Shown here: one piece after another, positions 5,571 to 6,611 of the stretch
Layout of the letters: every line of letters begins with the position of its first letter
Numbering within the stretch: the first letter of the stretch is position 1
DNA from: a virus
Lineage: Duplodnaviria > Heunggongvirae > Uroviricota > Caudoviricetes
Virus record (IMG/VR): IMGVR_UViG_2690316210_000014
Direction: 5' to 3' (one strand)
DNA: 7,115 bases
Program-made: the position numbers and the translations under genes
The notes under the pieces: generated by a model
What the model was told of the DNA's origin: nothing
The model's database searches: none
What the model saw: the letters and a program-made list of their open reading frames with translations, nothing else

Positions 5571-6611
5571 TCACCCCCTGAATCCCGGCGGAATTTCGGT
5601 ATCCGGTTCAGAAATATGATTCACACAACGCTGGTTGTTCGTGCCGCTTACCGGGAGCAACCAGGGGTTTTCAAAATTCCGGTCCGGCCCAAAAAACGTC
5701 GTCGCTCGCTGAACAAATTCCGTTCCCGCTTTCCCGGTCGCCGCCAGGTATCTCGCGTAACGCCTCACACCATCCAGCATGGTCTCTGGTGGCACCCCCT
5801 CGCGCAATCTGGCCTTCCAGGCACTGAATGCGGATTTCTTCGGGTTTGCCCCGGCACGCAACGGGTATTCCCGCCAGACCTGTTCGAACACATCCGGATA
5901 ATCCACTCGTCCCACAGGCTGCCCGGTGTTTTCCGGGGCTACCCGATCGGCTTCCCGCTGAATGGCGGAATCGGCTTCAGGCTGCTGCAGTTGGAGTGAT
6001 TGCTCCGGCCTTGCGGTCATCACCTGCTGCACAGCGCCCGAATCGGCTTCCGGTGTCGAGCCTGCTGGCTGACCAGGATTGACGGTCTGAACATCCCCTG
6101 CCTGGTTCGTGGCGTTTTTTACGCCATGGACCATAGTGTTTTGATCTTCTTTATCTGTATCTTTATCTGTATCTGTCGTGACTCGTCGTGACATGTGCGT
6201 GACATTTCGTGACGCGCCGTGACAATCGCCATTTTGTTCCCGCTTTCTTTCCCTCTCTCGCTGCGCCCTCTTGCGCTCTGCAGGAGATTTTGCGGTTTGC
6301 GAAATATTGCCGTTGTCCTCTTTAAGCACCTGGCGTTTTTCCCATCCAGTGATTAAATCACCATCAAGTACCCGCCCCTGCATCGTCTGCAAAATTGAAT
6401 CAATTACCTCTTCTGTCACGTCGAGCGCACTTGCCAAATCTTCTGTCGTGACATCAATGTGACCTCGCGTGACATTTCGTGACGCGCTCACCAGGAGGTG
6501 GATATACACTGCCATCACTGTTGCAATTGGCTGCCCTGACACCCTGGCAATTGTTCGCCACTTAGGGTCATTTGGCATGTCATGCCATAATCTGAGCCAG
6601 GCGTTAGCCAT
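5571..6611 (-). CDS. Phage replication initiator (lambda O-like / YdaU-like), with internal iteron arrays
   Basis: ORF ending TGA 5571-5573. The longest form starts at GTG 6617; the ATG at 6609-6611 preceded by AGAGGTGA is the likelier start (MANAWLRLWHDMPNDPKW...). It lies immediately upstream of the DnaC-like loader. A central low-complexity polar/acidic linker (RRVTTDTDKDTDKEDQ) is encoded by the repeat DNA, the same organisation as lambda O/ori. No catalytic motif recognised; function inferred from context. Confidence 0.65.
   Translation of the reverse strand: MANAWLRLWHDMPNDPKWRTIARVSGQPIATVMAVYIHLLVSASRNVTRGHIDVTTEDLASALDVTEEVIDSILQTMQGRVLDGDLITGWEKRQVLKEDNGNISQTAKSPAERKRAQRERERKREQNGDCHGASRNVTHMSRRVTTDTDKDTDKEDQNTMVHGVKNATNQAGDVQTVNPGQPAGSTPEADSGAVQQVMTARPEQSLQLQQPEADSAIQREADRVAPENTGQPVGRVDYPDVFEQVWREYPLRAGANPKKSAFSAWKARLREGVPPETMLDGVRRYARYLAATGKAGTEFVQRATTFFGPDRNFENPWLLPVSGTNNQRCVNHISEPDTEIPPGFRG
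6148..6223. repeat. Candidate replication origin core: AT-rich 12-bp tandem repeat followed by five phased CGTGAC iterons
   Basis: TCTTTATCTGTA at 6148-6159 and 6160-6171, plus a partial copy to 6176; this tract is about 29% GC by hand count. CGTGAC hexamers begin at 6177, 6187, 6198, 6208 and 6218, spaced 10-11 bp (one helical turn). All of this lies inside the initiator-like gene. Confidence 0.5.
6413..6487. repeat. Second iteron cluster in the 5' part of the initiator gene; contains an exact 21-bp copy of a segment of the first cluster
   Basis: CGTGAC or TGTGAC hexamers begin at 6447, 6458, 6468 and 6478 (10-11 bp spacing), with an inverted GTCACG at 6415-6420. GCGTGACATTTCGTGACGCGC at 6467-6487 is identical to 6197-6217. 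TCTGTCGTGAC also recurs at 6172-6182 and 6442-6452. Confidence 0.45.

Follow-up and report, generated by a model that had tools for sequence, protein, structure and literature searches.

A stretch of 7,115 nucleotides from a tailed virus (Caudoviricetes; IMG/VR record IMGVR_UViG_2690316210_000014), here called the window, carries a gene for a phage replication initiator in which two arrays of a short phased repeat, a single inverted copy of that repeat, a purine-rich tract and a hairpin are found between positions 6103 and 6483. Together, these elements probably constitute the theta-type replication origin of a lambdoid-style Escherichia coli prophage, located inside its own initiator gene; we would put the probability of this reading at about 0.75. 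The original prediction, made by a model from the letters of the window, had proposed a candidate origin within the initiator gene at 6148-6223. Constraint acting on the DNA, conservation of position, the presence of the least stable tract and a layout shared with phages lambda and SPP1 all agree with this proposal. The extent was underestimated, since the element is larger and also takes in a second array, the inverted copy and the hairpin.

Phased repeats, purine tract and hairpin

As predicted, five copies of CGTGAC follow one another on the plus strand with a phasing of 10-11 base pairs (bp), starting at 6177, 6187, 6198, 6208 and 6218 with spacings of 10, 11, 10 and 10 bp (mean 10.25 bp). 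Read in the sense of the gene, these are GTCACG cores, and the group, array B, occupies nucleotides (nt) 395-441 of the initiator gene. The second group, array A, and the inverted copy are listed in Table 1. The cores are 6-8 bp long and form direct repeats without an internal dyad. All nine copies of the hexamer in the window are confined to 6177-6483; 2.4 copies would be expected in total, and none of 200 shuffles reaches nine.

The repeats are not a by-product of the protein that they encode. Because the period is 10-11 nt, the hexamers occupy all three reading frames, and the peptides differ accordingly (ASR, VTR, GHI, VTT, CHG, MSR and others). When synonymous codons are permuted so that neither the protein nor its codon usage changes, GTCACG appears on average 1.4 times and at most 5 times, against 8 observed occurrences. 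This number was reached in 0 of 5000 permutations and the constraint therefore acts on the DNA.

In the sense of the gene, array B is followed by an AT-rich tract. Tandem Repeats Finder detects the predicted 12-bp tandem unit, TCTTTATCTGTA, in 2.2 copies at 6148-6174, while the G+C content, which had been given as 29%, measures 27.6% for 6148-6176. Of all 40-mers in the replication genes, that of the tract is the least stable, with a free energy (dG) of -43.2 as compared to a window mean of -54.6 (standard deviation 4.0). In the window, only 40-mers within the low-G+C restriction-modification genes have a lower stability. Array B and this tract correspond to the general plan of iteron origins, in which at least three helically phased direct repeats lie beside an unwinding element. 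Directly after the tract, the imperfect inverted repeat at 6103-6133 folds better as single-stranded DNA than shuffled sequences do (dG -8.7 and -10.9 kcal/mol; z -3.9 and -4.5), and the tract alone has no significant fold. The window has no match in Rfam. An internal promoter and an internal terminator were considered and rejected, with one consensus match each, not above shuffles; the apparent terminator match is the hairpin in a reading of the antisense strand.

Apart from these elements, a 13-nt inverted repeat with 12 of 13 complementary positions is found at 6220-6232 and 6669-6681 (TGACAATCGCCAT / ATGGCTATTGTCA). One of its arms is at the promoter-distal end of array B and the other in the intergenic region ahead of the initiator gene; the repeat may be due to chance.

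Table 1. Features of the candidate origin, the initiator gene and its neighbours (window coordinates)
Feature	Position	Strand	Remarks
CII/YdaT-like gene	6683-7108	-	
Initiator ("phage replisome organizer") gene, 348 residues, holds all origin elements	5571-6617	-	open reading frame; phrog_3729; RefSeq name
Folded N-terminal winged-helix domain, residues 6-95, presumed to bind the iterons	6333-6602	-	
Iteron array A: three GTCACG and one GTCACA (6458-6463; TGTGAC on the plus strand), 10-11 bp apart	6447-6483	-	
Single iteron, opposite orientation	6415-6420	+	
Basic helix, residues 112-129, ERKRAQRERERKREQNG, between N-terminal domain and array B	6231-6284	-	model, moderate confidence
Iteron array B: five GTCACG, consensus tGTCACGa, 10, 10, 11 and 10 bp apart in gene sense	6177-6223	-	
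AT-rich tract, proposed DNA unwinding element, sense strand purine-rich, ACAGATACAGATAAAGATACAGATAAAGAAGATCAAAAC, includes the 12-bp tandem repeat	6133-6176	-	27% G+C
Imperfect inverted repeat with 13-bp stem, perfect core TGGCGT-AAAAA-ACGCCA, directly after the tract	6103-6133	.	
C-terminal domain, residues ~225-348, presumed to recruit helicase or loader, ends IPPGFRG	5574-5945	-	phrog_18526, phrog_1701 "DnaD-like helicase loader"
DnaC-like helicase-loader (ATPase) gene, downstream of the initiator	4914-5564	-	NCBIfam PRK12377 and DnaC

The initiator and its relatives

The initiator matches phrog_3729, "replication initiation protein", with an expectation value (E) of 6e-240. In the AlphaFold2 model the N-terminal domain (N-domain) is a confident winged helix of the type found in the N-terminal domain of DnaD. 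Array A codes for a loop of this domain (residues 46-57) between helices 31-47 and 58-65. Residues 130-165, encoded by array B and the tract, are modelled as disordered, with a predicted local distance difference test score below 50, so that the placement of hexamers and tract in the linker-coding part of the gene was correct. The coding segments of all three elements therefore map to disordered or loop regions. In the basic helix that precedes array B, R115 and R120 are invariant or nearly so. A low-complexity segment after the N-domain, mirroring the direct repeats and the AT-rich tract of the DNA, is expected of replisome organisers and is present; a helicase-loader gene directly downstream, another feature of this class, is present as well.

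The Pfam profile PF09681 (Phage_rep_org_N) scores 15.6 bits (E 0.017), below its gathering cut-off of 23.3, in a nearly full alignment of residues 7-125 to profile positions 1-119 of 121. Among the homologues 5 of 34 members match this profile, the best with E 3.3e-4, and PHROG "replisome organizer" families match the initiator at E 2e-5 and 4e-4. The initiator thus appears to be, at best, a distant, sub-threshold relative of the phage replisome-organiser N-domain. The label "O-like", under which the gene had first been described, does not hold in the sense of descent. Pfam Phage_rep_O gives no match to the initiator, even at E up to 1, and an hhalign comparison of the N-domain profile with lambda O yields a probability of 0.1%. 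Homology with lambda O is therefore rejected, and the likeness is one of analogy.

The last 19-24 residues or so of the initiator (…EPDTEIPPGFRG; 5574-5645, minus strand) are common with YdaU of the Rac prophage (L177, 3421-3477), with 68% identity over 19 residues. This tail also bears a weak resemblance to the very C-terminal end of DnaT, a primosomal protein (E 0.0015-0.07). It could be imagined that a tail of the IPPGFRG type is a docking peptide for DnaC or DnaB; the cryo-electron microscopy paper on DnaT gives no role for the extreme C-terminal tail of that protein.

The replication module is widespread. Among 5426 complete E. coli genomes, 2504 have a match, pathogen lineages included, and in 1647 of these the copy is near full-length; seven phages, among which the isolated phages Tritos and Evi, match at about 95% identity. 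In the E. coli genomes, matches break at query positions 572-584 (window about 6142-6154), a mosaic breakpoint within the AT tract. Some prophages have the same N-domain, both arrays and the tract, followed by a C-terminus with a DnaT domain and by a P-like instead of a DnaC-like gene. N-domain, arrays and tract remain together, and the C-domain and the downstream gene switch jointly, the latter being DnaC-like, P-like, DnaB-like or missing in relatives. Tritos (L002) and L003 carry the initiator with the candidate origin as in the window, have no loader gene, and have DUF977 directly next, which suggests a direct use of the DnaC-DnaB of the host.

A first IMG/VR scan returned only near-identical E. 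coli copies, which were used for population variation. In 80 such copies the five cores of array B are almost invariant and the common polymorphisms sit in the spacers, while the ACAGATAAAGAT tandem differs in copy number between prophages. Array A has four copies in the window and six in L003 and L004, through an in-frame insertion of 21 bp. In the complete 46-kilobase (kb) genome of Tritos, array B is the only phased array of at least four copies of any hexamer, clusters of GTCACG are limited to arrays A and B, and the tract is within the least stable 1.2% of 40-mers. GTCACG arrays occur at the same places in Aeromonas phage pAEv1818 and in D3-like phages of Pseudomonas, the N-domains of which are about 74% identical, and the inverted iteron is kept in E. 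coli, Aeromonas and Pseudomonas relatives. Frameshifts in or near the repeats affect a number of copies of the initiator gene (L003 1499-2589; P0025 and P0030), and many database entries are labelled "partial", which points either to slippage in the repeats or to breaks in the assemblies at this place.

A survey of distant homologues covered 80 diverse IMG/VR loci, from a second scan led by distant members, and GenBank phages. The N-domains of the 80 loci are 43-100% identical to that of Ralstonia phage Firinga and 30-47% to that of the window; a non-identical subset consists of 72 loci of 2.7 kb with 30-83% N-domain identity and a mean G+C content of 61%. A phased hexamer array at gene nt 340-440 or thereabouts was found in 67 of 85 loci. 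For the 72 non-identical loci, array centres fall in the bin of nt 300-400 (42) or nt 400-500 (22); an array at nt 100-200 is present in 13, and all other 100-nt bins together give only 7 hits. The array finder needs exact hexamers, so that the longer, imperfect and irregularly spaced iterons of lambda escape it; the survey therefore under-counts degenerate arrays, and a locus without a detected array need not lack one.

The core itself changes from lineage to lineage (GTCACG, GCAACG, GTGACG, GTAACG, CGAACG, GAAACG, AACGCC and GGACAC), with a common ..ACG theme. Arrays A and B have an identical hexamer in 14 of the 15 genomes that possess both, and the fifteenth has the same site inverted. Such a concerted change would be expected if a single protein had to read every copy. 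Most loci have a purine-rich tract after the array, an equivalent of which exists in 62 of the non-identical diverse loci, most commonly as (C)TAGAGRAGAGRAGAGTAGAGAAGA; its reading frame is frame 2 in 59 loci, frame 1 in 10 and frame 0 in 3. In the 50 nt that follow the tract, 60% of loci and 9% of control windows have a perfect stem of at least 6 bp. For stems of at least 7 bp these values are 39% and 2%, and for at least 8 bp, 23% and 1%. The stem sequences differ from locus to locus.

The loops of these hairpins, about 10-50 nt after the tract (L094-L173), often have 4 nt: TAAC, TGAC, TATC or GCAA. Variable stems with 4-nt loops are commonly seen where selection acts on a structure of single-stranded nucleic acid, whether DNA or RNA. 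In several metagenomic homologues (P0042, P0060, P0061, P0073, P0097, P0098 and P0105), with 55-72% N-domain identity, an HNH nuclease domain (PF01844, PF14279) replaces the helicase-recruiting C-domain.

Known origins, proposed mechanism and competing explanations

The record of phage lambda has four annotated iterons within O (nt 349-433), with ACAAAAGACACTATTACAAAAGAAAAAAGAAAAGATTATT next and a palindrome after it. These iterons, like those of the window, are part of the initiator gene and mark the junction of the N-domain with the C-domain, which in lambda binds the loader (nt 349-433 versus 395-441). In both, a purine-rich AT tract on the sense strand and a palindrome come next, and a helicase-loader gene is found downstream. 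The lambda arrangement is matched in in-gene position, order and polarity, but not in O homology or in the length and symmetry of the iterons. Lambda has a single array of four 18-bp iterons about 20-24 bp apart, whereas the window has five cores of 6-8 bp, one every 10-11 bp, and in addition, 200-260 bp upstream, a second array with four copies and an inverted one; the set of about four iterons of 18-19 bp with internal dyad, typical of lambda, is absent from the window. The initiators have no detected sequence homology and the loader is DnaC-like, not P.

The resemblance to oriL of SPP1 (G38P, G39P, G40P) is of a similar nature. Gene 38, which harbours oriL, contains repeats GACACGAAAAA with a period of about 11 bp at nt 370-405 or so, and an A-rich 9-bp tandem at about nt 410-450. 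In this system, the direct repeats are the binding sites of gp38, the AT-rich region serves as unwinding element, and a reconstitution of theta replication has been achieved with this origin (PMC6316719). Short direct repeats followed by an A-rich tandem tract that codes for a low-complexity linker are common to both, and the two distant binding regions of SPP1 would have a counterpart in the two arrays, although oriR of SPP1 is 13 kb away and the distance here is 260 bp. SPP1 differs in repeat sequence and has a Gram-positive host, and a kinship of the N-domains is indicated only by a PF09681 match below threshold and by the DnaD-like fold. In lactococcal phages, the organisers of TP901-1 (ORF13) and Tuc2009 (Rep2009) bind direct repeats in their own genes that act as origin (PMC8965321). 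These P335 phages also have Gram-positive hosts, their proteins are at best distant relatives, and the likeness is by description. In position, order and polarity, the element in the window is the same as the lambda, SPP1 and lactococcal origins.

The ydaU-ydaV region of the Rac prophage in E. coli K-12 has the gene order of the window (ydaS/ydaT-like, initiator, DnaC-like, DUF977). It shares a ATAAAGATACAGATAAAGAT tract followed by a C/G hairpin, and YdaU has the IPPGFRG C-terminal tail. Its N-domain, DUF1376, is unrelated and its repeats are TGTTCAAAC-like, not GTCACG. These repeats are both direct and inverted and, with the tract and a CCCCC/GGGGG hairpin, lie at L177 2990-3170. The Rac prophage has an active origin, oriJ (PMC3945230), and this region of ydaU may be oriJ. 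Iteron-type plasmid origins (pSC101, R6K, P1, F) also have direct repeats of the initiator site beside an AT-rich unwinding element, together with a winged-helix initiator linked in cis, and further clusters of iterons may have a control function in these plasmids. Their iterons measure 17-22 bp, are usually intergenic and are accompanied by DnaA boxes, whereas the cores in the window measure 6-8 bp, lie in coding sequence and are without enrichment of DnaA boxes.

The following course of events can be proposed for the origin. After induction, the initiator, a replisome organiser, would be made and its winged-helix domain would bind tGTCACGa at the five sites of array B, the four of array A and the inverted one between them. 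With a phasing of about one helical turn, all sites of an array would be on one side of the DNA, and the resulting one-faced nucleoprotein complex might stress and open the low-stability purine-rich tract. The C-terminal domain would then recruit either the DnaC-like loader together with DnaB of the host, or else DnaB-DnaC of the host directly, and helicase would be loaded on the separated strands. As for the hairpin, it could delimit the unwound region on the far side, or assist loading or priming.

It is tempting, though rather doubtful, to go one step further and to regard the origin as tripartite, with the polypurine tract (C)TAGAGRAGAGRAGAGTAGAGAAGA, nearly constant in sequence among diverse phages, and the variable-stem hairpin as a portable module that would be a hitherto unrecognised, widely shared signal for helicase loading or priming. 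The idea comes from the occurrence of tract and hairpin behind unrelated types of iterons and N-domains, such as DUF1376 of Rac YdaU. Tract and hairpin are kept in phages of hosts from E. coli to cyanobacteria, and are linked to initiator C-domains that are DnaT-like or have a DnaT-like tail. If so, the reader would be other than the iteron-binding domain. A PriA/DnaT-like primosome acting on the extruded hairpin is one candidate; another is a stable R-loop in which the mRNA of the initiator, itself rich in purines, takes part.

Several observations weigh against an origin at this place. Matches to the DnaA box TTATNCACA with at most one mismatch number 5 in the window, where 6 are expected, and none lies in 6100-6500. 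DnaA boxes are not obligatory in phage origins. In the relatives rich in G+C the tract is only 42-66% AT, and its role as an unwinding element is less obvious there. On the side of the evidence in favour, the arginine codon ratio AGR:CGN, which is 142:1 in the tract and 32:442 in the N-domain in the loci of 61% G+C, is in part a circular argument, since purine content was the basis on which tracts were selected. Co-inheritance of sites with the N-domain is trivial and no proof of binding, because the sites lie inside the gene; covariation of N-domain and iteron was rejected as such a proof, and the concordance of arrays A and B and their positional persistence were used instead. The arrays could have been homogenised by slippage or gene conversion, not selection. 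Literature on GTCACG origins and on replisome-organiser origins in enterobacterial prophages yielded no paper describing the origin of this family; papers on the "Eru" replication units of Stx phages give gene types (YdaT-like in Eru8 and Eru11), no origins or iterons. Finally, the DnaC-like product of the window has an in-frame deletion of 32 residues between Walker A and B in comparison with its orthologue of 248 residues in L001, a 98%-identical prophage. The replication module may therefore be defective and the origin, even if intact, may be unusable and not fire in this copy of the prophage.

Among the competing explanations, the main rival, unlikely as a whole and most plausible for array A, is that the arrays are regulatory binding sites for the initiator or another phage protein and that replication starts elsewhere. 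They could serve as an autorepression roadblock, in titration or handcuffing that keeps initiation in check, or in the exclusion of related phages. Two separate arrays with an inverted site recall the control iterons of plasmids, and cloned origins of lactococcal replisome-organiser phages give phage resistance through titration (PMC8965321). Array A occurs in no more than 13 of 72 lineages, which marks it as accessory and possibly regulatory. Array B, however, is always joined to the least stable tract and the hairpin, as in lambda ori and SPP1 oriL; Tritos has no other phased array in its genome, and in characterised relatives in-gene repeats are the origin (PMC6316719, PMC8965321).

That tract and repeats are a recombination junction, where a short sequence common to otherwise unrelated initiator genes favours the exchange of modules and the disordered linker tolerates repeats that arose by slippage, has little probability as an alternative to an origin. 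The E. coli mosaic breakpoint does fall in the tract, the ATAAAGATACAGATAAAGAT tract is found in Rac ydaU beside an unrelated N-domain and unrelated repeats, and the tandem copy number varies. Such a junction would not account for repeats in helical phase, for cores that are identical between arrays at a distance of 260 bp, for the hairpin, or for an array that persists at one position across proteins that are only 30-40% identical. The tract probably combines a junction role with a role in the origin.

Even less probable is an action of purine tract and hairpin in the mRNA, in translation pausing, stability or attenuation between domains, with incidental hexamers. The 4-nt loops TAAC, TGAC and GCAA are like stable RNA tetraloops, the structure is kept while stems vary, and the purine-rich strand is always the sense strand. 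Against this stand the missing Rfam match, the lack of a significant fold of the tract itself and the same layout at the proven lambda and SPP1 origins, and the phased hexamer arrays would be left without a role. The least probable explanation, that the repeats merely reflect a low-complexity protein linker, is in keeping with a disordered, charged linker being encoded here, but a purely protein-level cause is excluded by the synonymous permutation and by the tract lying in different frames across lineages, and it fits neither a period that is no multiple of three, with three frames and different peptides, nor an array A in the folded domain.

Gene context and significance

The minus strand of the window carries a lambdoid-style early-right operon, to which a DUF1627 gene, a DUF977 gene and an open reading frame for a zinc-ribbon protein also belong. 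It also includes a restriction-modification pair of the BsuBI/PstI type, which is located at 189-3100 (minus strand) and consists of an endonuclease of 360 residues and an Eco57I/N6-type methyltransferase of 610 residues. This block has a G+C content of 43.6%, as compared to 51.4% in the rest of the window, and related prophages hold other cargo at this spot, for example QueH and a cytosine methyltransferase in L001.

An origin of this type is expected biology, which seems to be undescribed for this prophage family; distinctive are the short cores phased at 10 bp, the second in-gene array and the conserved purine tract and hairpin. The probable origin of this very common replication module of E. 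coli is neither annotated nor described. Knowledge of it would give a defined cis element for studies of prophage induction and replication and possibly a tool for phage-specific interference, as cloned lactococcal origins titrate their initiators. The lineages, with 6-bp cores one or two bases apart, would form a natural series of switches in initiator and iteron specificity, suited to the study of winged-helix DNA recognition co-evolving with sites in its own gene. A design of iterons, purine tract and hairpin at a domain boundary is common to lambda, SPP1 and this large family, in spite of little or no similarity between their initiators.

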